DNA from: a virus | IMG/VR virus record: IMGVR_UViG_3300048851_000084 | Coordinates: 1 to 44,512 of that record | Length of the DNA stretch: 44,512 nucleotides | Reading direction: 5' to 3' (one strand) | In this document: in pieces, positions 2,777-44,512 of the stretch | Layout of the letters: each line of letters starts with the position of its first letter | Position numbering within the stretch: the first letter of the stretch is position 1 | Notes under the pieces: generated by a model | What the model was told of the DNA's origin: nothing | What the model saw: only the letters and a program-made list of their open reading frames with translations | The model's database searches: none | Translations under genes and position numbers: made by a program

Positions 2777-2797
2777 GCTAGTGCCCTTTCTTCTATT

Positions 2798-2822
2798 TTT
2801 GTAGAAAAGTAGTTTTGTAGTG
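2798..2822. promoter_or_regulatory. GTAG tetramer-box array (3 boxes, 8-bp phase) in the parA 5' UTR
   Basis: GTAG aaaa GTAG tttt GTAG at 2801/2809/2817. Confidence 0.7.
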
Positions 2823-2832
2823 CTTGCCATCG

Positions 2833-2861
2833 AGTCTAGTCGCGGCCAGGCGAGCAAGCAA
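2833..2861 (-). promoter_or_regulatory. Putative sigma70 promoter of the parA operon
   Basis: Minus strand reads TTGCTT-17 nt-TAGACT; flanked on both sides by GTAG arrays. Confidence 0.55.
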
Positions 2862-2866
2862 CAGAA

Positions 2867-2890
2867 AAATAGAAATGTAGAAATGTATTT
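2867..2890. promoter_or_regulatory. GTAG tetramer-box array upstream of the parA -35
   Basis: ATAG aaat GTAG aaat GTAT at 2869/2877/2885. Confidence 0.65.
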
Positions 2891-3919: not shown

Positions 3920-4573
3920 TTATCGATACCGTGAAATGTTCGTCACGCGTCCGATTATGCACAGTGATTCTAGTGCGCTCGCCTCTATCCTTGTTTCCCT
4001 TTGGTACTCGCCATCCTCGGCGGTGACCGTAAAGCTACCGTCAAGTTCCACGCAAATCCAGCGGAACCACACTTTATTGCGCACTAACATGGCGTACATA
4101 TCGCGATTGGCCGGTATGCGCTGATCCCGATTCACCAGGGCCCGCGCGCCTTCGGGCAGTGCTGGAGCCATGCTGTTGTCGCTAGCCGCCAATAAAATCA
4201 GACGAGCGGGGTTCAGACCATGGGCCGCCAGCGCTTCGCCGCTGAATTGAACGGTGCGATCCGTCGGCAGCATGACCACGTCACCCGACGGTAAAGACAC
4301 CGGCGCGTCGTCCAGGCTGACAAATTCCCGTGCGGCGGAATCCTCGTCGCGCTTGAACTGAGTGAAACCGCATAGATAGGCCGGGGCCACGTTTAGGGCT
4401 TCGGCCAGTTCCAGGATCTGTTCCATCTTCGGCAGATTGCGGCCGCTTTCATAATGGCTGATACGGGTTTCACTAGGGGCCGACGGCATGCGCGCGCTGA
4501 GCTGACGCGCCGTTAGGTCCATTTCGGTGCGGCAGGAGCGAAGCCGACGGGCAAAGTTCTGACGGATATCCAT
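3920..4573 (-). CDS. cI-type prophage repressor (XRE HTH + S24 LexA-like autopeptidase, 217 aa)
   Basis: N-terminal HTH (LTARQLSARM...ISHYESGRNLP). C-terminal S24 motifs: DNSMAP (Ser) and VRNKVWFRW (Lys). Confidence 0.85.
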   Translation of the reverse strand: MDIRQNFARRLRSCRTEMDLTARQLSARMPSAPSETRISHYESGRNLPKMEQILELAEALNVAPAYLCGFTQFKRDEDSAAREFVSLDDAPVSLPSGDVVMLPTDRTVQFSGEALAAHGLNPARLILLAASDNSMAPALPEGARALVNRDQRIPANRDMYAMLVRNKVWFRWICVELDGSFTVTAEDGEYQRETRIEASALESLCIIGRVTNISRYR

Positions 4574-5804: not shown

Positions 5805-6007
5805 TGGCCCTGCCGTCGTATGCCTACGGTGACCCGGCTTTGATCGCCGAGCGCGACGAGCTGCACCGGATGGGCTGTCGTGCCTGCGTGCGCGCTGAGC
5901 GCGTGCTGGGTGAGTACGTCTGTACAACCTCGCTCAAATACCCGGCGTGCCGGCAAGAGCCCCGCAAGGGTTACAAGCTGCTGGCCAGTGCCGGGGGTGA
6001 GCGGTGA
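5804..6007 (+). CDS. small Cys-rich hypothetical protein (67 aa)
   Basis: TGATG coupling to the upstream gene; four Cys in CRACVRAERVLGEYVCTTSLKYPAC. Confidence 0.45.
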   Translation: MALPSYAYGDPALIAERDELHRMGCRACVRAERVLGEYVCTTSLKYPACRQEPRKGYKLLASAGGER

Positions 6008-6462
6008 GCGCCAAGCCTGGCCGCCTAGAGCGCCGTCTGGATGCCTGGGCGCGCTGGGTGGTATCGGGCGGCCAGGACAAGGCCCCGCCGTCGCTGCTGG
6101 CCCGCTGGATGGCCGGCAAAGGTCACATCGTCTTCGGCGGTGGATCGAGCGCGCCCAGCGACGTGATCGAAACCGTGATCGAGGCGACGGTTATGCAGAT
6201 GTTCGCCGAGGACGCCCTGGGCCAGCTGCGCGCCGATGTGTTGCGCCTGGAGTTCGGCGCCGGATCGCACCAGGTCGCCCAGCGCCGGGGCATTAAGGGC
6301 TTCGATCCGCGCACGCGCAGCCAAGCCAAAATGGCCGAGGCCCTGGGGATCAGTTACCGCACCTATCGCCGCCGCCTGGCGGAAGCCAAAGCCATCGTAA
6401 ACGCTGCATTGACCGCCGCGCTGCCACCTCGGGAGAAAGCCACATGTCCCGCTACAAACTGA
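6004..6462 (+). CDS. Q21/QuuD-like late antiterminator candidate (152 aa)
   Basis: GTGA-coupled start. N-terminal LERRLDAWARWV parallels the LERWGAWA motif of the Phage_antitermQ family. C-terminal HTH-like MAEALGISYRTYRRRLAEAKAIV. Confidence 0.45.
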   Translation: MSAKPGRLERRLDAWARWVVSGGQDKAPPSLLARWMAGKGHIVFGGGSSAPSDVIETVIEATVMQMFAEDALGQLRADVLRLEFGAGSHQVAQRRGIKGFDPRTRSQAKMAEALGISYRTYRRRLAEAKAIVNAALTAALPPREKATCPATN

Positions 6463-6812
6463 TTGAACGCAACCAGGCCCCGCGCAAGAACCGAGGGTTG
6501 TACAGCGCCGATGTCGTGCGTTTCCAGGCTAGTGAAAAGTATGTGTCCGCCTACAGCCTGGACGGGGAAATTTTGCTGCGCGATTCGCTCACCAGCCTGG
6601 AGGCCGAATTCCCTGGGCGTTTCTTCCGTGCCCATCCTGCGCACCTGGTCGACGTCCAGCGCATCACCCGCATCGACGTCCAGCGCACCCAGGTCGATGG
6701 CAAGAAGCGTCAGCGTCTGCATGTCGAGCTGCGCGAAGTGCCGGGCCTGGTGCCCCTGGGTCGCCGTCAGCTGCGCAAGTTGCTGGAGCGCCGGCCCGAC
6801 CTGGCGTCCTGA
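6444..6812 (+). CDS. stand-alone LytTR DNA-binding domain protein (122 aa)
   Basis: VVRFQASEKYVSAYSLDGEILLRDSLTSLEAEFPGRFFRAHPAHLVDVQRI fits the LytTR consensus (..yv.v.t.....lr.sL..le..lp..FfRvHrS.lVN...I). Confidence 0.65.
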   Translation: MSRYKLIERNQAPRKNRGLYSADVVRFQASEKYVSAYSLDGEILLRDSLTSLEAEFPGRFFRAHPAHLVDVQRITRIDVQRTQVDGKKRQRLHVELREVPGLVPLGRRQLRKLLERRPDLAS

Positions 6813-6836
6813 TCCAAGCAGGCCGCGCAATGCGGT

Positions 6837-6868
6837 CTGTAGTTAAATAGATTTGTAGAAAAGTAGAC
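6837..6868. promoter_or_regulatory. GTAG tetramer-box array (4 boxes, 8-bp phase) upstream of int
   Basis: GTAG ttaa ATAG attt GTAG aaaa GTAG at 6839/6847/6855/6863. Confidence 0.7.
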
Positions 6869-6957
6869 CACTCCCCCGCTGCCTGGCGTTCTGCCGGGTG
6901 GCTTTCGGCTGCCTGCCGTTTGGCATGCGGTCCCGCTGCATTGAGGACGCCCGCGCA

Positions 6958-8160
6958 ATGACCACTATCACCCTGGAAATCTCCGACGCGGCGATTCGCC
7001 GTCATGCCACCGATCCGGCCGTACGAGAGCTGAACGACAGCCGCCTGCCTTATCGCTTCCGTTACGACAAAAAACGCCTGGGCGGGTCCTGGCATATCGT
7101 CAAAAGCATTGAGGGAAAGCCGCGTTGGAAGAAAGCCGGCACCTTCCCCGCACTAACCACCAAGGGCCTGAAAGCTGCGCTGCCGGCGATCATGGGCCGC
7201 CTGTATGCCGACCCCAAAAACGCCAGTGCGGCGGTGGGGATCTACAAAGTGGTGAACGACGTCCTGGTGTGGTTCGAGGCGCGCATGGCCCAGGACCGCA
7301 ACCTGTCGCGCAAGCGCAAAGACACCGTGCGCTCGGCGATTAAATGTCACCTGCGGCCCATGCTTGGGGGCTTTGATCTGTTGGAGCTGACCCGGGGCAA
7401 CCTGGACAGCCAATTACTATGGCCGCTGCAATCGCGCTATTCGCTGGCTCATGTTCGCCTGGTCTGGCAAGTCCTCAAGATGATCAGCAAGCGGGCCCGT
7501 AGTGCGGGAGTGATCGAACAGGACCCGCTGGCCGGGCTCATGTTTACCGACTTTATCGGTGCGTCGATCAATGCCAAGGACTCACGCTTGCGCGCTGCCC
7601 TGGTGCCGGAGCTGATCGCCTCGCTGAGCCTGAACTGGAGCCGTGACCCGTCACAAACAGCCCTGGCGGTACTGATGCTGGCCAACGTCACGCGCCTGGG
7701 CGAAACCCGCCAAGCCAAATGGGCGCACTTTGACGGCATCACCTGGCACATTCCCCAGGCAACCGCCAAAACCCGGGTGTCGCATAGCCTGCCACTGACC
7801 GCACAAATGCTGGCCTTCCTGGAGCGTTACCGGCAGTGGCAACGCTCGACCGGGTACGACGGGGCCTATCTGTTCCCGGGCAAGCGCACCCGCAAGCCCA
7901 TCACCGAACGCCAAGCGTCTGAGCAGTTCGCGCGCCTGGGTGCCGGCGAGTGGACCAGTCACGACCTGCGCAAAGTCGGTGCCTCGACGTTGCTCGACCT
8001 GGGCGTGGATAACCTGATTATCGACCTGCTGCTAAACCATAAGGTCAAGGGTGTGAACCAGGCGTACATCCATACGCATGCCGAGGAACGCAAGCGCGAC
8101 GCCCTGGAACGCTGGCATTCCTGGCTGGATGATCGGGGTTTTTCTGCGCTCGGCCGTTAG
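6958..8160 (+). CDS. int: tyrosine recombinase, P4-type phage integrase (400 aa)
   Basis: Arm-binding-like N-terminus (LPYRFRYDKKRLGGSWHIVK). C-terminal catalytic signature HDLRKVGASTLLDLG...LLNH...YIH. Confidence 0.85.
   Translation: MTTITLEISDAAIRRHATDPAVRELNDSRLPYRFRYDKKRLGGSWHIVKSIEGKPRWKKAGTFPALTTKGLKAALPAIMGRLYADPKNASAAVGIYKVVNDVLVWFEARMAQDRNLSRKRKDTVRSAIKCHLRPMLGGFDLLELTRGNLDSQLLWPLQSRYSLAHVRLVWQVLKMISKRARSAGVIEQDPLAGLMFTDFIGASINAKDSRLRAALVPELIASLSLNWSRDPSQTALAVLMLANVTRLGETRQAKWAHFDGITWHIPQATAKTRVSHSLPLTAQMLAFLERYRQWQRSTGYDGAYLFPGKRTRKPITERQASEQFARLGAGEWTSHDLRKVGASTLLDLGVDNLIIDLLLNHKVKGVNQAYIHTHAEERKRDALERWHSWLDDRGFSALGR
7643..7654. repeat. GTGAC-CC-GTCAC palindrome (13-mer CGTGACCCGTCAC)
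   Basis: Inside int; encodes RDPS. Confidence 0.9.
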
Positions 8161-16254: not shown

Positions 16255-17912
16255 TGGATCCTGTACGCATTCTGGGCGCGAATGGCCAGCCGCTGCCGCC
16301 AATGCAGCCGAGCAAAGCCAAGGCCCTGGCCCAGGGCAGTAACACGCCGTATGACGCGGCCAGCTACGTCGGCGAACACGTCGCCGATTGGAATCCCTAC
16401 CTCGCCTCGCCTGACGGCGAACGCAACATGTACCGCGACCGGATCACCGCCCGTTCGCGTGACCTGGTGCGCAATGACGGCTGGGCATCGGGCGCGGTGA
16501 CGCGGATCCTGGATAACCAAATCGGCGGCAACTTCCGGCCGATGTTCAAGCCCGATTACAAGGCCCTGGCCTTGCGCACGGGCATCAAGGCCTTCGACTC
16601 AACCTGGGCCCATGAATATGCCCAGGTGTTGGCCGCCAACTTCCGCACCTGGTCGGAGGGGCCAGGCCACTACGCGGACGCCCAGCGGCATCAAACATTG
16701 GTGCAGCTGATGCGCCTGGCCTTCCGCCACAAGCTGATCGACGGCGACGCCCTGGCCCAATTGCTCTGGCTGCCGGAGCGCATGGGACCAGGCCGGGCCA
16801 GCTACGCCACCACGGTGCAGCTGATCGACCCCGACCGCCTGTCTAACCCGCAACTGGTGTTTGATTCGCAGACCATGCGCGGCGGCGTCGTCGTCGACCA
16901 GTACGGCGCGGCCGAGGGTTACTACATCCGCCGCGCGCATCAAGGCGACTGGTGGTCCGCCGCCGAGAGCCAGACGTGGGACCTGATCCCCCGAGAAACA
17001 TCGTGGGGCCGGCCGATCATCGTGCATGACTACGACCCGGACCGGGCGGGCCAGCACAAGGGCGGCACGGGGATTTTTACCCCCATCCTGACCCGTATGA
17101 AAATGCTGGCCAAGATGGACGGCGTCGAGCTGGATGCGGCCGTGGTAAACGCGGTGTTCGGCGCATACATCGAGAGCCCCTACGACCACACGCTGGTCGA
17201 GGAAGCCCTGGGCGACAACGTGGACACCGGGCTGTCGGCCTACCAGACCGACCGCGCCGAGTTTCACAAGGAGCGCCGCACCGCCCTGGGCGGCGTGCGG
17301 GTGCCGATTCTGTTTCCTGGCGAGAAAATCAACGCGGTCGCCTCAACCCGGCCGAACGCGAATTTCGCCGGGTTTCAAAGCACCTTCCTACGCAACTTCG
17401 CCCAGCAAACCGGCCTGGCCCCGCAACAGCTGTCGGGCAACTACAGCGACGCCAACTATTCCAGCCTGCGCGCCGCGCTGCTGGATGCTTACAAAACCAT
17501 GGGTCGCCGGCACTACGACTACAGCCACCGCTTTGCTAACCCGATTGCCAACGGCTGGCACGAGGAAAGCCGCGACGTGGACGCCTACCCGCTGCCCCGG
17601 GGTGCGCCGGAGTTTGCCCTGTGCCGCGCCGAATACGGCCGCATGATCTGGATGCGGCCGCCACGCGGCTGGGTGGATCCGGTGGCTGAGAAACAAGGCG
17701 CGGTCCTGGGCATGGACGCGGGCCTGTCTACGCTGCAACACGAAACCCAGGAACAGGATCTGGACTACGAGGAAGTGCTGGAGCAGCGCGCCCGCGAAAT
17801 CGCCAAGTTCGAGTCCCTGGGCATGATCCCACCGACCTGGGCGGGTATGCAGGTTTACCAAAACCAGCCCGTGCCCGCCAACCAGGTCGCCACCAAACCG
17901 GAGCCGCAATAA
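16254..17912 (+). CDS. portal protein, lambda gpB family (552 aa)
   Basis: Size, position and TGATG coupling; lambda-type portal layout. Confidence 0.85.
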   Translation: MDPVRILGANGQPLPPMQPSKAKALAQGSNTPYDAASYVGEHVADWNPYLASPDGERNMYRDRITARSRDLVRNDGWASGAVTRILDNQIGGNFRPMFKPDYKALALRTGIKAFDSTWAHEYAQVLAANFRTWSEGPGHYADAQRHQTLVQLMRLAFRHKLIDGDALAQLLWLPERMGPGRASYATTVQLIDPDRLSNPQLVFDSQTMRGGVVVDQYGAAEGYYIRRAHQGDWWSAAESQTWDLIPRETSWGRPIIVHDYDPDRAGQHKGGTGIFTPILTRMKMLAKMDGVELDAAVVNAVFGAYIESPYDHTLVEEALGDNVDTGLSAYQTDRAEFHKERRTALGGVRVPILFPGEKINAVASTRPNANFAGFQSTFLRNFAQQTGLAPQQLSGNYSDANYSSLRAALLDAYKTMGRRHYDYSHRFANPIANGWHEESRDVDAYPLPRGAPEFALCRAEYGRMIWMRPPRGWVDPVAEKQGAVLGMDAGLSTLQHETQEQDLDYEEVLEQRAREIAKFESLGMIPPTWAGMQVYQNQPVPANQVATKPEPQ

Positions 17913-21340: not shown

Positions 21341-21564
21341 TGACCGCTGCCGCTAAGAAGGCCACCGAAGGCAAGTCCGTGGCTCGCCTGGTTGCGCCAG
21401 GTCGAACCGTTGTCGGCAACGACGGCAAGTCTGTCGGCCCAGGCACTAAGGTCTGGATCCTCGACACGGACGTGGAGCGCCTGACCCGCCTGGGTTACCT
21501 GGTGGACCCGGAAGCCAAGCCGATGAAACGTCGCGGCCCGGCCACGTTGAACGACCTGGGCTGA
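21340..21564 (+). CDS. hypothetical head-module protein (74 aa)
   Basis: TAATG-coupled ORF. Confidence 0.45.
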   Translation: MTAAAKKATEGKSVARLVAPGRTVVGNDGKSVGPGTKVWILDTDVERLTRLGYLVDPEAKPMKRRGPATLNDLG

Positions 21565-36996: not shown

Positions 36997-37203
36997 CACC
37001 CCCGCCACACCTCCCCGCAACACTCTCCCCGAAGCCTCGGGCGGCCCACTGTGGCCGCGCCGGGGCTTTCCTGCGCCTGGCGCCCTGTCGCGCCCTTCCC
37101 TGCCCCTTAAAACAGCTCAAATCGAGCCCTGGCGGCGCCTAAATCACCCCTGTTTTGCCCCAAGCAGCACGCACCTGGCGCCGAGCGCCGCACCCCTGGA
37201 AAT

Positions 37204-37254
37204 TTAAGTGGGACCCCCAATTATTAAGTGGGTCCATAGTTGGTTTAAGTAGTG
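37204..37254 (+). repeat. Three direct iteron-like repeats TTAAGTGGG / TTAAGTGGG / TTAAGTAGTG spaced 20-21 bp apart
   Basis: Copies at 37204, 37224 and 37245; followed by a T-rich stretch. Confidence 0.6.
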
Positions 37255-37273
37255 AGTGTTCTTTTCCCTTTTA

Positions 37274-37840
37274 GCTTCTGAGAAGCGGGCGGCACGCCTG
37301 CGGCCTGCCTTTTTAATGCCTCGGCAAGCCGAGACCTGCCTATCTCGCCTGGGCTTGCCCAGGCAACGAGGCCGCCCGCAGTTCGTGCCTACGGCACGGC
37401 GGGACGATGGGTTTTAAAGCCTGCCGCCGCCGTTCCGTCAGTGAGGCGCGTTCCACTCCTTGCGCGCCGGAGAACGTCCGCGCAAGACCTCACAGCCGGC
37501 GCACCGGCACTACAGTCGATCACGCGCCGGCCGTTGGCCTGGTAGGTCGCTACGCTCCCGGTAAACAGTGAAGGGGGTGGCCCTGCCTTGCGCGTATGCC
37601 TGCAAGCCCGCCAGCGCCGTTTTGGACGGTTTAGCGTTGCTGGCCAGGTCTGCGCATGCCTGCACGATTCGCGGCCGTGCGAGCCCCTGGCGGCCTTCGG
37701 CCGCTCGGCGACCGCAATTCGCCGTCGACGTCCGCGCGAACGCGTCACGGCGGTGGGTGCGGCCGCGCCTGGATCCGCGCCGGGCCAGGTTTACGGGCCG
37801 GCTGCGCCGCGAGCATCGAGGACAAACATTTTACGCTGGC
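37274..37840. other. ORF-poor, dyad-rich GC-rich segment (putative origin/ssi region or structured RNA)
   Basis: Nested perfect stems, e.g. 37285-37293/37371-37379 enclosing the hairpins 37320-37333 and 37347-37364, and 37441-37446/37488-37493 enclosing 37459-37466/37479-37486. Only Arg-rich shadow ORFs are present. Confidence 0.4.
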
Positions 37841-37870
37841 TATGTTTGTAGATTTGTAGAAATGTAGTAG
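37840..37870. promoter_or_regulatory. GTAG tetramer-box array upstream of CDS 37921
   Basis: GTAG attt GTAG aaat GTAG at 37848/37856/37864. Confidence 0.7.
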
Positions 37871-37920
37871 CCTGCTGGCTCCCTAGTTGTGATCTGTCAC
37901 GCCCCTGGAGCCCCTGCGCA

Positions 37921-38457
37921 ATGATTGACCCGAACGACAAACGCACCCTGGACCTGGTCGAAATGGCCAGCGGTCGACCTGCCCGGCCGTTGGCCGAGCT
38001 GATCGAGGCCAGCGCCCTGGCCGCTGCGCCCGATGATGACGACGAGGCCGATTCCGGCCCGATGGATCCGGCCGCCCGCCAGCGCCGGATGCGCGCCAGG
38101 CGCAAAGCTCTGGGCAAAAAAGCGGTTTGGCTGACCGATGTAGAACGCCTGGCCATCCAATGCGCGCTGGAACTGTTGCACGCGATCCCGGCCCCGGGCC
38201 TGGCGGCGACACTGGACGCGGCGCTGCAAGCGGTGACCCCTGGCGCGATCTGGCCGGAATCGGCCGCACCTGCCCCGCGCGTCGAAGGTGGCCAGCTGGA
38301 ACGACTGCGCGCACGGGTGGCGGATCTGGAGCAGGAAAACGAGCTGTGCATTGTCGAGCGCGGCCGGGCTTTCGAGGCCGTCCAGGTGCTACAGGCGCGG
38401 CTCCAACGTGCCGGCCTGCCCGCTGACTACCAGCGGCAGCCAGACGAGCCTAAATAG
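37921..38457 (+). CDS. hypothetical protein (178 aa) with an acidic linker and a C-terminal coiled coil
   Basis: ATG ORF directly downstream of a GTAG array. Confidence 0.5.
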   Translation: MIDPNDKRTLDLVEMASGRPARPLAELIEASALAAAPDDDDEADSGPMDPAARQRRMRARRKALGKKAVWLTDVERLAIQCALELLHAIPAPGLAATLDAALQAVTPGAIWPESAAPAPRVEGGQLERLRARVADLEQENELCIVERGRAFEAVQVLQARLQRAGLPADYQRQPDEPK

Positions 38458-38486
38458 TTTTATAGAAATGTAGAAATGTAGAAATT
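38452..38486. promoter_or_regulatory. GTAG tetramer-box array upstream of CDS 38531
   Basis: ATAG tttt ATAG aaat GTAG aaat GTAG aaat at 38454/38462/38470/38478. Confidence 0.7.
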
Positions 38487-38530
38487 AAACCGGTAGGATG
38501 ACCCCACCAGCCCCCAAAGGAGTGTCACCC

Positions 38531-38899
38531 ATGAAAGCAACAATCACCCAACGCACTGAGCCGGTCGCCTGCCACTACGCGTTCGGCTTCCTGGACTCGG
38601 CCGGCCGCGAATACGGCATGGCGTCACTGTGCTGGGAAGTCGAGGTAACCGAGCAAGTCGAAAAAACGGGCGTCTACTACACGTCGTTCGATGCCCCCGG
38701 CCATTATTTCGCGGCAAGCACTCAAGCCACCCGCGACGGAAAAAGCTACGGCGCATCGCAAGACAGCCGCTATTTCAAGACCGAAGAGGAACGCGAGGCG
38801 TACCTGGCCCGCCGCAAGTCCGACAGCCTCAAGGCCGCTGAGAAAAAGGGCATTCCGCGCAAAGTAAATTTACGTTTAACTATTAATGTAGAAATGTAG
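38531..38899 (+). CDS. hypothetical protein (122 aa)
   Basis: AAGGAG RBS 8 nt before the ATG. Its last codons and stop (aat gta gaa atg tag) lie within the next GTAG array. Confidence 0.5.
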   Translation: MKATITQRTEPVACHYAFGFLDSAGREYGMASLCWEVEVTEQVEKTGVYYTSFDAPGHYFAASTQATRDGKSYGASQDSRYFKTEEEREAYLARRKSDSLKAAEKKGIPRKVNLRLTINVEM

Positions 38900-38907
38900 A
38901 TTTCTAC
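38885..38907. promoter_or_regulatory. GTAG tetramer-box array with one inverted box
   Basis: GTAG aaat GTAG attt CTAC at 38888/38896/38904; abuts the -35 of the next promoter. Confidence 0.7.
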
Positions 38908-38936
38908 TTGCACGCCGTACCCAAAGGGTACACAAT
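38908..38936 (+). promoter_or_regulatory. Putative promoter of tail-anchored peptide gene 1
   Basis: TTGCAC-17 nt-CACAAT. The spacer contains the hairpin GTACCC-aaa-GGGTAC. Confidence 0.45.
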
Positions 38937-38990
38937 ACAACCCATGGGAAGCGCGAAGGGCGCGGCCCAAGCCCCAAAGGAAGGTTGAAC

Positions 38991-39188
38991 ATGCTGGACA
39001 ATCGCGAAGCACTGGAACTGGAAAAGCTACAGGTTGAGATTCAAAAATTCATGGCTGAAAGCCGCAAGCTGAACGCCGAGGCGCGTAAGCTCAAACGGGA
39101 ATCCGACTGGTATCCGTTTGCAGCGGGGGCGGGTCTGGTCACTGCCATCGTGGCGCTGCTGACAGTCTTCGTGAAGTTCGTCAGCTGA
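38991..39188 (+). CDS. small C-tail-anchored membrane protein, paralogue 1 (65 aa)
   Basis: AAGGAAGG RBS; charged helical N-terminus; C-terminal WYPFAAGAGLVTAIVALLTVFVKFVS. Confidence 0.55.
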   Translation: MLDNREALELEKLQVEIQKFMAESRKLNAEARKLKRESDWYPFAAGAGLVTAIVALLTVFVKFVS

Positions 39189-39194
39189 TCCACC

Positions 39195-39214
39195 GGCCCC
39201 GCGAAAGCGGGGCC
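39195..39214 (+). terminator. 8-bp GC stem with a GAAA tetraloop (no U-tract) after paralogue 1
   Basis: GGCCCCGC-gaaa-GCGGGGCC. Confidence 0.4.
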
Positions 39215-39235
39215 ACTGTCGCCCGTCGTGCCGGC

Positions 39236-39264
39236 TTGTCATTTGCCCGCGTCGGGGGCACATT
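39236..39264 (+). promoter_or_regulatory. Putative promoter of tail-anchored peptide gene 2
   Basis: TTGTCA-17 nt-CACATT; same geometry and leader length as 38908-38936. Confidence 0.4.
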
Positions 39265-39317
39265 AAGCCCAAGGGCGGCGCAACAGGCGCGGCCCGTACC
39301 TGAAAGGATGACCTGCT

Positions 39318-39500
39318 ATGAACAACGCACAAGCCAAACCGCTGGAGCAGCTGCACAGCGACGTCGCCGCCTTTAATGAAGAAATGCGCGAGGCGCGCCA
39401 GGCTTCGGCCGTGACCCGTAGCGGCCTGGTGCCGTTTGCCCTGGGCGCGATGTCCGCCCTGGCCACTTTCGGCGTGGTCGCCCTGCTGCTGAAAGTCTGA
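39318..39500 (+). CDS. small C-tail-anchored membrane protein, paralogue 2 (60 aa)
   Basis: Helical N-terminus; C-terminal LVPFALGAMSALATFGVVALLLKV shares PFAxGA with paralogue 1. Confidence 0.55.
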   Translation: MNNAQAKPLEQLHSDVAAFNEEMREARQASAVTRSGLVPFALGAMSALATFGVVALLLKV

Positions 39501-39517
39501 CCCCCCTTCCCCCTCAT

Positions 39518-39545
39518 AAGCCCCGCACCGGTCGGGGCTTTCTGG
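39518..39545 (+). terminator. Terminator-like hairpin after paralogue 2
   Basis: AAGCCCCG-caccggt-CGGGGCTT followed by TCTGGTT. Confidence 0.5.
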
Positions 39546-39552
39546 TTCCCCT

Positions 39553-39846
39553 ATGAAAAGAATTGCGCACTACACCCCGCCGTCACCGGCTGACCTTGCG
39601 CGTCTGAAATCTGACCTCAAGTTCACCAGCCCGCAAATGGCCGATCTGACCGGCTTGGCCCAGGGCGCTCACTGGCGCAAATACACGGGCGGCGCGACCC
39701 CGCGTGAAATGGGTGTTCACATGCACTTTTACCTGGCTGCGCTGCTGACCCTGAGTGACGACGAGCTGGCCAGGGTGGCCGCGACCATGCGCGAACACGG
39801 CGCGGATATTGAGTTAGGCCCCTTGCCCGCTGGGCCTTCGGCCTGA
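39553..39846 (+). CDS. putative XRE-like HTH protein (97 aa)
   Basis: LKFTSPQMADLTGLAQGAHWRKYTGG...REM...FYLAALL resembles short HTH regulators. Confidence 0.45.
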   Translation: MKRIAHYTPPSPADLARLKSDLKFTSPQMADLTGLAQGAHWRKYTGGATPREMGVHMHFYLAALLTLSDDELARVAATMREHGADIELGPLPAGPSA

Positions 39847-39847
39847 G

Positions 39848-39888
39848 CTAGGTTTGTAGCTTTGTAGAAATGTAGTCTTATTCTGTAG
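39848..39888. promoter_or_regulatory. GTAG tetramer-box array upstream of the UmuD'-like gene
   Basis: CTAG gttt GTAG cttt GTAG aaat GTAG at 39848/39856/39864/39872, plus an out-of-phase GTAG at 39885. Confidence 0.7.
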
Positions 39889-40251
39889 GTGGCCCCCGTG
39901 TCTGATCCCTTCGAGACGTTGCCCAAAGTCCTGTCCCTGGACGACCTGCTGTCGATCCGTTCGCCGTCGACGTACCTGGTCAAAGTCGACGGTGACAGCA
40001 TGCAAGGCGCCGGGATCTACTCCGGCGACATCCTGATAGTGGATAAGGGCATCGAGCCCACGCGCGGCGACATCGTTATAGGCGTGATCAACAATGAGCC
40101 GCTGTGCAAGCGCCTGGACTACGAGGGCCGCACCCCGGTGTTACGTTCGGAAAACCCGCGCTACCCGCCGCGCTGGATTATGGAAGGTGACGATTTTAGC
40201 GTGTGGGGAGTTGTCCGCTACAGCCTGCGCGCGCATACGCGGGAGACTTAA
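39889..40251 (+). CDS. umuD: UmuD'-like S24 peptidase-fold protein lacking the cleavable N-terminus (120 aa; GTG start at 39889 or 39898)
   Basis: STYLVKVDGDSMQGAGIYSGDILIVDKG...GDIVIGVINNEPLCKRL aligns with UmuD from about residue 30 (GDSM Ser, CKRL Lys). No Cys/Ala-Gly cleavage segment. No umuC in the genome. Confidence 0.75.
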   Translation: MAPVSDPFETLPKVLSLDDLLSIRSPSTYLVKVDGDSMQGAGIYSGDILIVDKGIEPTRGDIVIGVINNEPLCKRLDYEGRTPVLRSENPRYPPRWIMEGDDFSVWGVVRYSLRAHTRET

Positions 40252-40297
40252 TCCGTCGGCCCTGGTCTGATGTCTGCCCCCATTAGGATCTGCCTAT

Positions 40298-40528
40298 ATG
40301 CCTACCGAAACCGCTGCTAACCTGCGCACCAAAGCCCTGGCCGATTGGAAAAAAGCGGTCAACGATCAAAGCGCACTGCTGCGTGACCCGTCACAACGCA
40401 TTAAAGAGCTGACCGACCAGGCGCGCCAGGCGCACGACCAGGGCGTGATAAATGCCGAGGATCTGCGCGAGTTATTGGAATGGGCAGACGCGGCCTTTGC
40501 CTGGGCCGAGGAACACCGCACGGCCTGA
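40298..40528 (+). CDS. hypothetical helical protein (76 aa)
   Basis: ATG ORF; contains the CGTGACCCGTCAC 13-mer. Confidence 0.45.
   Translation: MPTETAANLRTKALADWKKAVNDQSALLRDPSQRIKELTDQARQAHDQGVINAEDLRELLEWADAAFAWAEEHRTA
40383..40394. repeat. GTGAC-CC-GTCAC palindrome (13-mer CGTGACCCGTCAC)
   Basis: Inside CDS 40298..40528; encodes RDPS. Confidence 0.9.
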
Positions 40529-40533
40529 GCCGA

Positions 40534-40782
40534 TCAGGGCAGCCGGGTGCGTTCCTGGTTTATCACCCGCTGCAATTGCTGGAGCGCGACCAGGTCGCCC
40601 CCGACGCATTCGCGCCAGGCCTTGTGGGTGTTCTTATACAGGCCGTCAATCTCGCTGATCACCCTGCGGTAACGTGCGACCTCAAGCATTAGCCGGCGAA
40701 GATCAGGCGCGCCGTGCTGGGTCCAAAGCTGTCGCAGTTCGGTTTCGGTGATCGGTTCAAATGGCGGGAGTACGCGGGCCAT
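40534..40782 (-). CDS. hypothetical protein (82 aa), SOS-regulated candidate
   Basis: ATG 14 bp from a perfect LexA box; AAAGG RBS. Confidence 0.5.
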   Translation of the reverse strand: MARVLPPFEPITETELRQLWTQHGAPDLRRLMLEVARYRRVISEIDGLYKNTHKAWRECVGGDLVALQQLQRVINQERTRLP

Positions 40783-40795
40783 GCTGAGCGCCTTT

Positions 40796-40815
40796 TACTG
40801 TTTGGATGTACAGTA
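40796..40815. promoter_or_regulatory. LexA (SOS) box
   Basis: TACTGtttggatgtaCAGTA, i.e. TACTG-N10-CAGTA / CTGT-N8-ACAG, in a divergent intergenic region. Confidence 0.75.
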
Positions 40816-40892
40816 TTGCGAGGCGAGGTTTTGATTGCCAGTACCGGCGATCAGGCGCCGTTTTTCGGCTATCACGATGAGAGGTTTGCGGC

Positions 40893-41117
40893 ATGAGCCA
40901 ACGCGGTATTGATTACATGACGGCTTACACGGCTGTCAGTGCCCAGCTGATCGAGGAAGGCTATGAGGATCTGCTGGACGGCGGGCCCGGTGGCGTGCGC
41001 GAGGCGCTGGCCCAGATGATGGGTGATGCCGAACAGATGATGATCCGGGCCGCCGCGCTCAAGGCCCAGCTGGATGCTGCCGACGCGCAAATGGCCGATA
41101 GTAAGGATCTGCATTAA
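40893..41117 (+). CDS. hypothetical acidic protein (74 aa)
   Basis: ATG ORF divergent from 40534..40782. Confidence 0.45.
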   Translation: MSQRGIDYMTAYTAVSAQLIEEGYEDLLDGGPGGVREALAQMMGDAEQMMIRAAALKAQLDAADAQMADSKDLH

Positions 41118-41434: not shown

Positions 41435-41462
41435 TTGCACAATTTATCAGAACTGATAATCT
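41435..41462 (+). promoter_or_regulatory. Promoter plus 16-bp palindromic operator (TTATCAGAACTGATAA, 41444-41459) of the HTH gene
   Basis: TTGCAC-16 nt-TAATCT, with the palindrome filling the spacer. Confidence 0.55.
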
Positions 41463-41571
41463 CCGCCTGACCCGACATCGTAAATAATGATTATCCACAA
41501 ATTGTTCGATTGAATTTGCAAATCAAATACCCAAGAGACATAACCTCCCCCTATGTCGGAGGACCCCCGAA

Positions 41572-41883
41572 ATGAGCCAAAATATATTCGAGCTGTTCAC
41601 AGCTGATCCCGTGGAATACAACATGAAGCACCTAAAGGTGCAGCTATTCGCGGCGCTGACAAAGCTGATACGTGAAAAGCGGTGGACCCAAACCGAGGCC
41701 GCCCAGGAACTGAACGTGAGTCCGCCAAGAATGAGCAACCTGTTCAAAGGTCACTTAGAGAAATTTTCCATCGACGCGCTGATCGAAATGCTGGTCCGTA
41801 TCGGTTATAAGCTCGATGTAGATTTCGATCCCGATAATCGGCAGCAACCGCTAACGATGAACGTAAAAAAGGCGACGCTGTGA
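41572..41883 (+). CDS. XRE-type HTH protein, HigA/HTH_37-like antitoxin candidate (103 aa)
   Basis: LIREKRWTQTEAAQELNVSPPRMSNLFKGHLEKFSIDALIEMLVRIG is typical of HTH_37 antitoxins. Confidence 0.7.
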   Translation: MSQNIFELFTADPVEYNMKHLKVQLFAALTKLIREKRWTQTEAAQELNVSPPRMSNLFKGHLEKFSIDALIEMLVRIGYKLDVDFDPDNRQQPLTMNVKKATL

Positions 41884-42474: not shown

Positions 42475-42502
42475 ACCTTATCAGAATTGATAAGATTCGC
42501 AA
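42475..42502 (-). promoter_or_regulatory. Promoter plus 16-bp operator (TTATCAGAATTGATAA, 42478-42493) of the toxin-like gene
   Basis: Minus strand reads TTGCGA-16 nt-TAAGGT. Geometry matches 41435-41462, and the operator is 15/16 identical. Confidence 0.55.
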
Positions 42503-44345: not shown

Positions 44346-44512
44346 GCCTGGCCGAGCGGATGAAGGCGACCCCGGCCGAGATCGAGGCCGGCGAACGACG
44401 ACTGGCCGCCCGAATCGCGACGATTCATAAAGCCGACACCGACGAGGACCGCGAGGACGCCGTGTGGTATGCCCGCCGCGTCCTCGACCAGCTGCTGGAC
44501 TGCGGTTACAGC
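44342..44512 (+). CDS. 5' part of a junction-spanning hypothetical protein (continues at 128..379)
   Basis: ATGA coupling at 44342-44345; the frame is continuous across the circular junction. Confidence 0.5.
   Translation, partial: MSLAERMKATPAEIEAGERRLAARIATIHKADTDEDREDAVWYARRVLDQLLDCGYS
44386..44512. repeat. Terminal overlap copy 2 (identical to 1-127)
   Basis: Same comparison. A length of 127 is typical of a de Bruijn-graph circularisation overlap (inference). Confidence 0.95.

Follow-up and report, generated by a model that had tools for sequence, protein, structure and literature searches.

Why does one short, phased repeat stand before the partition operon, the integrase gene, and a run of small accessory genes of a single phage genome, and which of its proteins reads it? 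We addressed this question in IMG/VR virus record IMGVR_UViG_3300048851_000084, all 44,512 nucleotides of which make up the window analyzed here. A first-pass annotation had proposed that dispersed GTAG boxes define a regulon of four consecutive accessory cassettes and that one repeat-reading protein co-regulates these genes together with partition and the integrase. The arrays exist, are nonrandom, and are conserved in position and sequence. With a probability of roughly 0.6, we read them as GTAG-N4 binding sites predicted for the element's own type Ib centromere-binding protein, a 91-amino-acid (aa) ParG-like product encoded at 1823-2098. Most likely they would act as both parS and operator, as with the ribbon-helix-helix (RHH) protein omega of plasmid pSM19035, and segregation of the plasmid would then probably be coupled to the regulation of the partition operon, of the integrase, and of several accessory genes.

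Seven phased GTAG arrays on one arc of a circular genome

The window carries seven arrays, each made of four (G/A/C)TA(G/T)-type boxes in strict 8-bp phase (Table 1). All four arrays that the first-pass annotation had named in the accessory region were recovered at or beside their reported positions, each one box longer at its 5′ end and hence four boxes long, and the two at parA and the one at int are also present. Its count of about 23 boxes was close: once the array at 2861 is re-registered by one base, the 28 phased positions hold 17 GTAG, 4 ATAG, and 1 CTAC, i.e., 22 canonical boxes, and the other 6 are degenerate. A+T makes up 87% of the 4-bp spacers between boxes, compared with 37% of the genome.

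Shuffled sequence does not contain such arrays at similar density. Six arrays with at least three phased RTAG/CTAY boxes occur in the window, compared to a mean of 0.023 and a maximum of 1 across 300 first-order Markov shuffles. The pattern TGTAG-N3-TGTAG, allowing at most one mismatch, has 11 matches where 0.65 are expected (0 of 100 shuffles reach 11), all of them located in the seven arrays, and an unbiased count ranks GTAG first of all 256 tetramers for 8-bp phasing. Both motif and phased-box scans found zero arrays from 6.9 to 37.8 kb, where the structural and lysis genes lie, a region that had been described as free of them. An exact terminal direct repeat of 127 nt (1-127 = 44386-44512) indicates that the window closes into a circle of 44,385 bp; its ends are therefore contiguous, and the seven arrays share one 13.4-kb arc that runs from 37840 through the origin to 6866.

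Because 8 is not a multiple of 3, three phased GTAG boxes place TAG in every plus-strand frame, and six of the seven arrays contain TAG in all three. This explains why the open reading frames 37921..38457 and 38531..38899 stop inside arrays, the second of which had been noticed earlier. Box orientation is mixed in relatives, so neither the all-plus orientation nor the stop-codon property is conserved.

Two arrays bracket the parA promoter

The partition ATPase scores above the cutoffs of Pfam AAA_31 and CbiA and matches phrog_164, "ParA-like partition protein" (3e-27); its alignment with NCBIfam ParA_partition is full length at 84 bits, below the 180-bit cutoff. As in type Ib systems, it is small (214 aa) and of the type without the N-terminal helix-turn-helix (HTH) domain of type Ia. 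The proximal array lies between the −10 hexamer of the putative promoter PparA and the parA ribosome-binding site, 16 bp from the start codon, and its block CACTACAAAACTACTTTTCTAC is near-invariant in an alignment of four relatives while the flanks vary. Box 1 of the distal array shares 1 nt with the −35 hexamer, and this array is kept in relatives as CTACATTTCTACATTT(G/C)TAT. The PparA hexamers (TTGCnn and TAGACT/TAAACT) are conserved in four elements, with a diverged 17-nt spacer and diverged flanks; PparA was assigned by phylogenetic footprinting alone, as our strict sigma-70 scan covered 37000-41000. Iterated short repeats thus overlap the operon promoter, again as in type Ib systems, and two arrays bracket the −35 and −10 hexamers of parA in all lineages examined.

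Footprints in close relatives

A large protein collection yielded seven relatives of the ParG-like protein, and contigs L001 (41 kb), L005 (44.6 kb), L006 (16.9 kb), and L011 (46 kb) proved to be syntenic metagenomic phage genomes whose ParG-like proteins are 63 to 99% identical (L011, 99%). Five related metagenomic elements in all retain the boxes at syntenic sites. In each of the four contigs, int is preceded by one GTAG/CTAC array and parA by two, and the accessory arc has three or four, so that the linkage of partition, integrase, and accessory genes by one motif, as first proposed, recurs in homologous elements. Alignments at parA, int, and the accessory arrays have the form of footprints, in which boxes and promoter hexamers are conserved and flanks have diverged. 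Within this clade the ParG-like protein is invariant over residues 45-68, its whole RHH domain, including the ribbon KVGLNTEVT, and its tail varies.

A ribbon-helix-helix protein in the centromere-binder position

The 91-aa protein has a disordered, proline- and lysine-rich N-terminal tail with a conserved KGEPP motif, followed by the C-terminal segment KVGLNTEVT-AEFRAELKVWAAQHG-MKMGEALQKGFELLKAKH, in which KVGLNTEVT would be the ribbon and residues 57-70 and 74-89 the helices. An exhaustive HMMER search collected about 100 clusters (at 50% identity) of relatives 70 to 100 aa long. Pfam RHH_10 is matched by 15 of 48 family members, and others match 56B_RHH or Antitox_RHH. When the family profile was compared with the PDB, the RHH protein SvtR (2KEL) was the best match (E, 1.2e-3), ParG (1P94) the second (E, 0.052), and Mnt came next. 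Aligned by hhalign with TP228 ParG, whose sequence we verified against 1P94, the 48-sequence profile gave an E value of 7.8e-5 and a probability of 62%, with ribbon, helix A, and helix B in register; with only 7 sequences, these values were 0.008 and 5%.

These profiles indicate that the product is an RHH-family protein in type Ib centromere-binding position, as the first-pass annotation had anticipated in calling it ParG-like: it is shorter than 100 aa, is encoded directly downstream of parA, and has a flexible tail, the fold being assigned by profile with a weak monomer model. Remote homology to ParG is plausible; since membership of the ParG family is not established, we keep the name ParG-like. 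The family corresponds to phrog_6024, annotated as "hypothetical" or "unknown function."

Box and ribbon change together in distant lineages

By tblastn, ParG-like homologues of 35 to 42% identity are encoded beside ParA on 41- to 49-kb plasmids and phages of Pseudomonas aeruginosa, Escherichia coli, Salmonella, Yersinia, Vibrio, and Halomonas. We examined three of these lineages, represented by pPAC1.3b, the 48.5-kb plasmid of E. coli ATCC 25922, and Vibrio phage 10N.237.312.C11_PE002A, whose ParG-like proteins are 37 to 38% identical to that of the window. In all three, the parA promoter is flanked by two four-box arrays in 8-bp phase, and dispersed copies lie elsewhere. The P. aeruginosa circular plasmid pPAC1.3b, which has myovirus-type structural genes and the gene order cI, two genes, parA, parG-like, uses the box GCGA in the unit TAGCGAAW (27 matches to a two-unit pattern versus 4.7 expected), with further arrays before int, before the rep-like gene, after the capsid gene, and after the tape-measure gene. 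The E. coli plasmid, which carries RepA and a structural module, uses TATA/ATAG boxes, with 9 arrays of at least three boxes versus 0.005 expected; a strict sigma-70 scan found no promoter on the relevant strand beside them. An extra four-box array lies between its parA and parG-like genes (21360-21387), and several dispersed arrays of this lineage have a longer common unit ending in AAAAAGTGC. The Vibrio phage, which encodes RepA, ParA, and the ParG-like protein, uses the box CGTG in units of CTTTCGTG (18 matches versus 0.78 expected) and has at least five arrays beyond the parA pair, several of them between tail genes.

The ribbons differ along with the boxes: KVGLNTEVT accompanies GTAG, versus LVDFNFKVG, GAQMAFNVD, and QEPLNFKVD in the other three lineages. 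Between the window and pPAC1.3b the Rep-like proteins have no similarity, and the genes beside parA differ in the Vibrio phage. Common to the four lineages are only ParA, the RHH protein, and four-box arrays in 8-bp phase. As judged from these comparisons, the arrays co-vary with the ParG-like protein across lineages, ribbon and box appearing to change together.

Arrays and genes of the accessory arc

The plus-strand small genes of the accessory arc encode 178, 122, 65, 60, and 97 aa and are followed by a UmuD-like S24 peptidase gene and then by variable cargo (Table 1). Array 1 stands at the end of the noncoding stretch past the Rep-like gene, 53 bp before ATG 37921. Its block TTTGTAGAAATGTAG is invariant in alignments with L001 and L005, and its surroundings contain no conserved promoter hexamers, the only conserved feature being a palindrome farther downstream. 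An inverted repeat, GTGAnnnGTCAC, occupies 37889-37900, about 20 bp upstream of the same ATG; it is the perfect CGTGACTAGTCACG in L005 and is recognizable in L001. Boxes 3 and 4 of array 2 overlap a −35-like TAGAAA (38471-38476), which is followed 17 nt on by a −10-like TAGGAT (38494-38499) conserved in the alignment, and then by ATG 38531.

Array 3 ends, as previously described, in an inverted box (CTAC) that abuts the −35 hexamer of the putative promoter TTGCAC-N17-CACAAT. Array, hexamers, and the downstream 65-aa gene form a conserved unit in L005 and L001 with the consensus TTGCAA-N17-CATAAT; the window's hexamers match at 7 of 12 positions and were therefore missed by the strict sigma-70 scan. 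The 17-nt spacer contains a palindrome, GTACCCAAAGGGTAC (38916-38930), which is kept in L001 and may serve a different regulator as a second operator. The 65-aa (38991-39188) and 60-aa (39318-39500) genes look paralogous, with an N-terminal charged helix and a C-terminal transmembrane segment; they correspond to phrog_6330 and phrog_9071 (function unknown), and each is followed by a GC-rich hairpin. What had been taken for a single third cassette is thus three genes (38991, 39318, and 39553) with hairpins between them.

Array 4 ends 13 to 22 bp before the start codon of the UmuD-like gene, which is probably GTG 39898 behind an AGGTGG Shine-Dalgarno sequence. In relatives this array stays with the 97-aa gene, and in L011 and L005 it is succeeded by an 82-aa gene of convergent orientation, beyond which lies an SOS box; the UmuD-like gene is its downstream neighbor in this element only. 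The earlier assignment of array 4 as the operator of the UmuD-like gene does not hold in those relatives, and in the window itself the gap is just those 13 to 22 bp.

Overall, promoter-like conserved hexamers touch four of the seven arrays (both parA arrays and arrays 2 and 3), and neither the alignments nor the strict sigma-70 scan of 37 to 41 kb allowed a promoter to be assigned to the int array or to arrays 1 and 4. The proposed four-cassette regulon therefore survives in part, for arrays 2 and 3, which overlap or abut conserved hexamers, and not for array 4, tied to the 97-aa gene, or array 1, without a conserved promoter.

TABLE 1 Arrays, putative promoters, and genes of the array-bearing arc (coordinates in the window)
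Feature	Coordinates	Strand	Details
ParG-like gene, 91 aa	1823..2098	-	Starts 34 bp past parA
parA, small Walker-type partition ATPase, 214 aa	2132..2776	-	Pfam, PHROG
parA-proximal array	2793-2820		CTAT GTAG GTAG GTAG
Putative parA-parG promoter (PparA)	2833..2861	-	−35 TTGCTT (2856-2861), 17-nt spacer, −10 TAGACT (2833-2838)
parA-distal array	2861-2888		ACAG ATAG GTAG GTAT
LuxR-type membrane HTH protein, 144 aa	3027-3461	-	
cI-like repressor	3920-4573	-	
152-aa HTH protein	6004-6462		
LytTR protein	6444-6812	+	Last gene of early operon before the tyrosine recombinase
int-upstream array	6839-6866		GTAG ATAG GTAG GTAG
Tyrosine recombinase, integrase family, 400 aa (int)	6958..8160	+	Pfam, PHROG
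Rep-like gene, 335 aa	35989..36996	+	Weak BLASTP match to annotated RepA of an E. coli phage-plasmid
Noncoding stretch 3′ of Rep-like gene, ~850 bp	36997-37839		No convincing gene
Accessory array 1	37840-37867		CTAT GTAG GTAG GTAG
178-aa gene	37921..38457	+	Stop codon in array 2 box 1
Accessory array 2	38454-38481		ATAG ATAG GTAG GTAG
122-aa gene	38531..38899	+	Stop TAG 38897-38899 in array 3 box 3
Accessory array 3	38880-38907		CTAT GTAG GTAG CTAC
Putative promoter of 65-aa membrane-protein gene (38991)	38908..38936	+	TTGCAC (38908-38913)-N17-CACAAT (38931-38936)
97-aa gene	39553..39846	+	Array 4 begins 2 bp past its stop
Accessory array 4	39848-39875		CTAG GTAG GTAG GTAG
UmuD-like S24 peptidase	39889..40251	+	Pfam Peptidase_S24 3.5e-21; phrog_811 "UmuD-like" 2.7e-32

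The array before the tyrosine recombinase

The recombinase matches Pfam Phage_integrase (1e-14) and phrog_1 (1e-41), and alignment places its start at ATG 6958, giving 400 aa as in relatives, rather than at GTG 6898. The array upstream of it, 91 bp before this ATG, is syntenic in L001, L005, L006, and L011 and, with a different box, in pPAC1.3b. It directly follows a conserved GC-rich hairpin (6822-6838, GGCCGCGCAATGCGGTC) that has compensatory changes at two pairs across relatives and is likely the terminator of the LytTR operon. Between the array and the int ribosome-binding site, at 6868-6945, lies a block of about 60 to 80 bp that is near-invariant in four elements whose proteins are only 60 to 75% identical. 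The block can form a 10-bp hairpin, GCTGCCTGGC...GCCGGGTGGC, and may represent a structured leader or the core of attP or of a resolution site. An invariant 19-mer from it, used as a probe for attB or relatives, gave 26 hits in genome contigs (GTDB) from unrelated phyla; as none of these hits extends further, we regard them as chance.

Comparison with known partition and repressor systems

The closest formal match to the array architecture is ParG of TP228, closer than omega. ParG binds ACTC tetramers separated by 4-bp AT spacers, direct or inverted, with one dimer per box and cooperative coating, and its sites are both operator and centromere (PMC3130281). At the DNA level the correspondence is direct: tetramer boxes with regular 4-bp AT-rich spacers in 8-bp phase, in the window as 28 units with one inverted box and in relatives with mixed orientations. 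The operon layout also agrees with TP228 ParF-ParG: the gene for a small Walker ParA comes first and that for a small RHH protein, whose N-terminal tail is flexible, second, and arrays upstream of the operon overlap its promoter. The box differs (ACTC there, GTAG here), as does the layout: TP228 has one contiguous 20-box region (parH, 12, plus OF, 8), whereas here discrete four-box arrays are found, two at parA and five dispersed over 13 kb, on a replicon that is a phage-plasmid. The window protein also reaches no Pfam model, that of ParG included.

The first-pass comparison with omega of pSM19035 was apt, in that RHH dimers there bind short direct or inverted repeats that are parS sites and operators at once. 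The parS sites of omega overlap three promoters (copS, delta, and omega), and at least 4 contiguous repeats are needed to activate ParA (PMC9499535). Shared with the window are several separate arrays on one replicon and a repeat minimum that equals the four-box length here. In pSM19035, one RHH dimer binds each short repeat and the arrays overlap promoters of partition and other maintenance genes, whereas here four of the seven arrays lie on or against promoter-like hexamers; omega is, besides, a global repressor as well as a centromere-binding protein. Its sites are built of 7 to 10 WATCACW heptads of 7 bp, in contrast to four 8-bp units, and its host is a Firmicute plasmid and not a phage. 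Its targets are copS, delta, and omega-epsilon-zeta, whereas the candidate targets here are parA, the tyrosine recombinase, and genes of unknown function. The window's system may work like omega; it is not a member of the omega/inc18 family.

Dispersed centromeres have a precedent in the phage-plasmid N15, which has four separate partition sites (IR1-IR4) instead of one tandem cluster as in F (PMC7205306). N15 is nevertheless type Ia, with a large HTH ParB (SopB) and single 16-bp palindromes of no sequence relationship to the arrays; the window, with its 91-aa RHH-family protein and tandem tetramer arrays, is not of this type. In work by Ravin and Lane, the N15 sites, scattered over the genome, reportedly affect phage gene expression. 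KorB (ParB) of the IncP-1 plasmid RK2 likewise combines partition with global regulation through about a dozen dispersed operators; it differs in being a type Ia HTH ParB that has single 13-bp palindromes as operators, can act at a distance, and belongs to a conjugative plasmid. The 8-bp period and the binding logic are those of MetJ, an RHH repressor that binds cooperatively to 2 to 5 tandem 8-bp repeats (met boxes), but MetJ controls metabolism from the chromosome, depends on a co-repressor, plays no part in partition, and recognizes an unrelated box.

A partition protein as the probable reader of the arrays

From these precedents we infer the binding, stoichiometry, direction of regulation, and centromere activity of the arrays. 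As with ParG and omega, the two-stranded ribbon of one RHH dimer would enter the major groove at each tetramer box; A+T spacers of 4 bp would let adjacent dimers touch, and four dimers could coat a 28- to 32-bp array cooperatively. The two arrays that bracket PparA would provide autoregulation of the operon. Each four-box array would be a minimal parS unit at which the N-terminal tail could recruit and stimulate ParA, and with five such arrays beyond the parA pair, the plasmid prophage would be a multi-centromere replicon. Where arrays lie on or against hexamers (38471-38499, 38908-38936, and perhaps int), transcription would be tied to the level of the partition protein. An array just upstream of or over a −35 hexamer fits repression as with omega, and activation is also possible.

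Several observations weigh against this reading. The single ParG-like sequence has no match in Pfam (E ≤ 0.01), NCBIfam, or the PDB. Its AlphaFold monomer model has a pLDDT of 59.6 and lacks the ribbon, with only two helices after a 48-aa low-confidence tail, as expected of a fold that forms on dimerization; the top Foldseek matches of this model are almost all RHH proteins, at nonsignificant E values of about 1. The strict sigma-70 scan of 37 to 41 kb found no promoter, so statements on promoters and operators are based on weak hexamers that are conserved. The gene after array 4 is convergent in relatives, and the arrays of other lineages lie inside late operons, which would fit a centromere or a roadblock better than classical promoter repression. 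Moreover, every element-specific protein differs between lineages, and co-variation alone can therefore not single out the ParG-like protein; the 152-aa HTH protein, another DNA-binding candidate, is 69 to 80% conserved in the GTAG clade. That arrays lie among tail or capsid genes in the lineages of the Vibrio phage and pPAC1.3b, and before rep in pPAC1.3b, argues against an accessory regulon as the general rule and for genome-wide docking sites. A better fit to the comparisons than the four-cassette regulon first put forward would be that the partition protein docks at sites across the whole replicon and that some of these sites overlap promoters.

The same late-operon arrays, together with the lack of a co-oriented gene after array 4 in L011 and L005, the empty sigma-70 scan near the arrays, and a four-box length equal to the minimal ParA-activating repeat unit of pSM19035, would suit a purely multisite centromere, N15-like, in which the ParG-like sites serve segregation only and any meaningful effect on transcription is confined to parA autoregulation. 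We consider this unlikely, although it deserves attention, given that the arrays are strictly intergenic, that four of them (2, 3, and the parA pair) lie on or against −35/−10-like hexamers that are conserved, that the inverted last box of array 3 has the orientation of the box beside the PparA −35, and that the array before int recurs in two lineages with different boxes. We see still less chance that another element-encoded regulator (the 152-aa HTH, LuxR-type, LytTR, or cI-like protein) reads the arrays with the partition protein uninvolved. The array-bearing arc does encode several DNA-binding proteins, the conservation of the 152-aa protein noted above would be in keeping with such a role, and the cross-lineage co-variation is not protein specific. 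HTH and LytTR proteins, however, recognize longer, differently spaced sites, whereas tandem repeats of 7 to 8 bp are typical of RHH proteins (MetJ, ParG, and omega). Annotation tables, as opposed to a homology search, list none of these regulators at the matching positions of the Vibrio phage, which has the same array architecture, and two arrays bracket the parA promoter in all four lineages. Within the GTAG clade, LytTR is only 31 to 58% identical, and the cI of the window departs in its recognition-helix region from that of relatives with GTAG boxes, a divergence that led us to set both aside as unlikely readers; a cI-like gene near parA is retained in the E. coli plasmid and pPAC1.3b.

Very improbable, in our judgment, are readings of the arrays as Rep-binding iterons or handcuffing sites, as A-tract-like UP elements, or as recombination-promoting cassette boundaries. 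They draw on the position of array 1 at the end of the noncoding region past the Rep-like gene, on the pPAC1.3b array before its rep-like gene, on arrays at gene junctions where the gene content of relatives varies, and on the stop codons in three plus-strand frames in six of seven arrays. Iterons fail as the principal explanation because the Rep-like proteins of window and pPAC1.3b are unrelated while the array architecture is the same, and because a separate repeat set (TTAAGTGGG) lies beside rep. In addition, no phased bending results from an 8-bp period, arrays do not enclose the variable cargo region (40.5 kb to 1.8 kb), and the stop codons are lost with the mixed box orientation of relatives. 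Which protein binds the arrays, and whether its role is repression, activation, or centromere function only, we infer from sequence comparison, which favors the ParG-like partition protein.

The element and its other features

By its gene content, the window is a Pseudomonas-type phage-plasmid: a structural module (terminase, portal, capsid, and tape-measure genes, with lysis genes too) is combined with ParA, the ParG-like protein, and a weak Rep-like gene on a closed contig that also encodes an integrase-family recombinase. Syntenic kin are recorded as circular plasmids (pPAC1.3b and the E. coli ATCC 25922 plasmid) or, for the Vibrio relative, as a phage with RepA. No relatives turned up among viral contigs scanned via ParA or among GTDB genome contigs scanned with the ParG-like alignment, and a megablast of 37000-41000 found nothing in phages and one 250-bp patch of 76% identity in a single Pseudomonas plasmid.

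The Rep-like protein weakly resembles the annotated RepA of the E. coli phage-plasmid (BLASTP E, 0.002; 23% identity over 237 aa) and holds the identical position in synteny. The noncoding stretch past its gene contains a 17-nt inverted repeat at 37317-37365 and, separate from the GTAG arrays, TTAAGTGGG(A/T)CC repeats at 37204 and 37224 with a related third copy near 37245. Rfam and tRNA scans covering the entire window, this stretch included, gave zero matches. Gene and stretch probably form the plasmid replication module, with 36997-37839 as a candidate plasmid origin. On the minus strand, the arc encodes the cI-like repressor, a 119-aa product, the 144-aa LuxR-type HTH protein, ParA, and the 91-aa protein.

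Past the UmuD-like gene, a perfect CTGT-N8-ACAG palindrome that resembles a LexA/SOS box (TACTGTTTGGATGTACAGTA, 40797-40816) sits in the divergent gap between an 82-aa gene (40534..40782, minus strand) and 40893..41117 (plus strand), and the matching gene pair of L011 has CTGTATATAAATACAG (about 17880-17900). With the self-cleaving cI-like repressor nearby, this region may be a switch or an antirepressor module under LexA control. A 16-bp palindrome, TTATCAGAA(C/T)TGATAA, occurs twice, at 41444-41459 and 42478-42493 (chance expectation, 0), and the two copies enclose a low-GC cargo module that comprises an HTH_37 gene (41572..41883) and a 146-aa gene on the minus strand; 32 bp past the first copy, at 41491-41499, is a perfect DnaA-box consensus, TTATCCACA. 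The cargo of the variable region in L011 (13415-17200) differs, consisting of a serine resolvase, a KAP-family NTPase, DUF7946, and one more gene; it may be a defense module, and it shows that cargo turns over within the clade.

Implications for phage-plasmid biology

An RHH centromere-binding protein that regulates several promoters is known already from omega and ParG, and dispersed phage-plasmid centromeres are known from N15 (of unrelated type Ia). What seems new is the combination of an uncharacterized RHH family, ParG-type 4+4 arrays split into dispersed four-box units, a recurrent array before the recombinase gene, and lineage-specific boxes; full-text literature searches, of incomplete coverage, returned no description of dispersed RHH-type arrays in phage-plasmids. 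More tentatively, and with doubts outweighing confidence, we suggest that these elements may constitute a widespread undescribed class of phage-plasmids (Pseudomonas, Escherichia/Salmonella/Yersinia, Vibrio, and Halomonas) in which the RHH partition protein is a genome-wide organizer acting through scattered four-box parS units, placed ahead of parA, the tyrosine recombinase gene, rep, and accessory genes and, in some lineages, among late structural genes. In the plasmid-prophage state, assembly of partition complexes might silence recombination, replication, accessory, and lytic functions or set their timing, and the ribbon-box pairs of the lineages (GTAG, GCGA, TATA, and CGTG) might mark off groups of incompatibility or cross talk and provide a natural recognition code for RHH proteins.

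If the partition protein binds the arrays, the principle embodied by omega and ParG, that the centromere binder is also a regulator, would extend to phage-plasmids in a new layout, with many separate four-box units across the genome. For annotation, the motif may serve to mark centromere and operator sites and to identify phrog_6024 as the partition partner of ParA. Four natural protein-box pairs of the same architecture would offer a compact system for studying RHH specificity and for predicting phage-plasmid incompatibility, and segregation would gain a testable link to the tyrosine recombinase (integration or dimer resolution), to accessory genes, and to the late genes of sister lineages.

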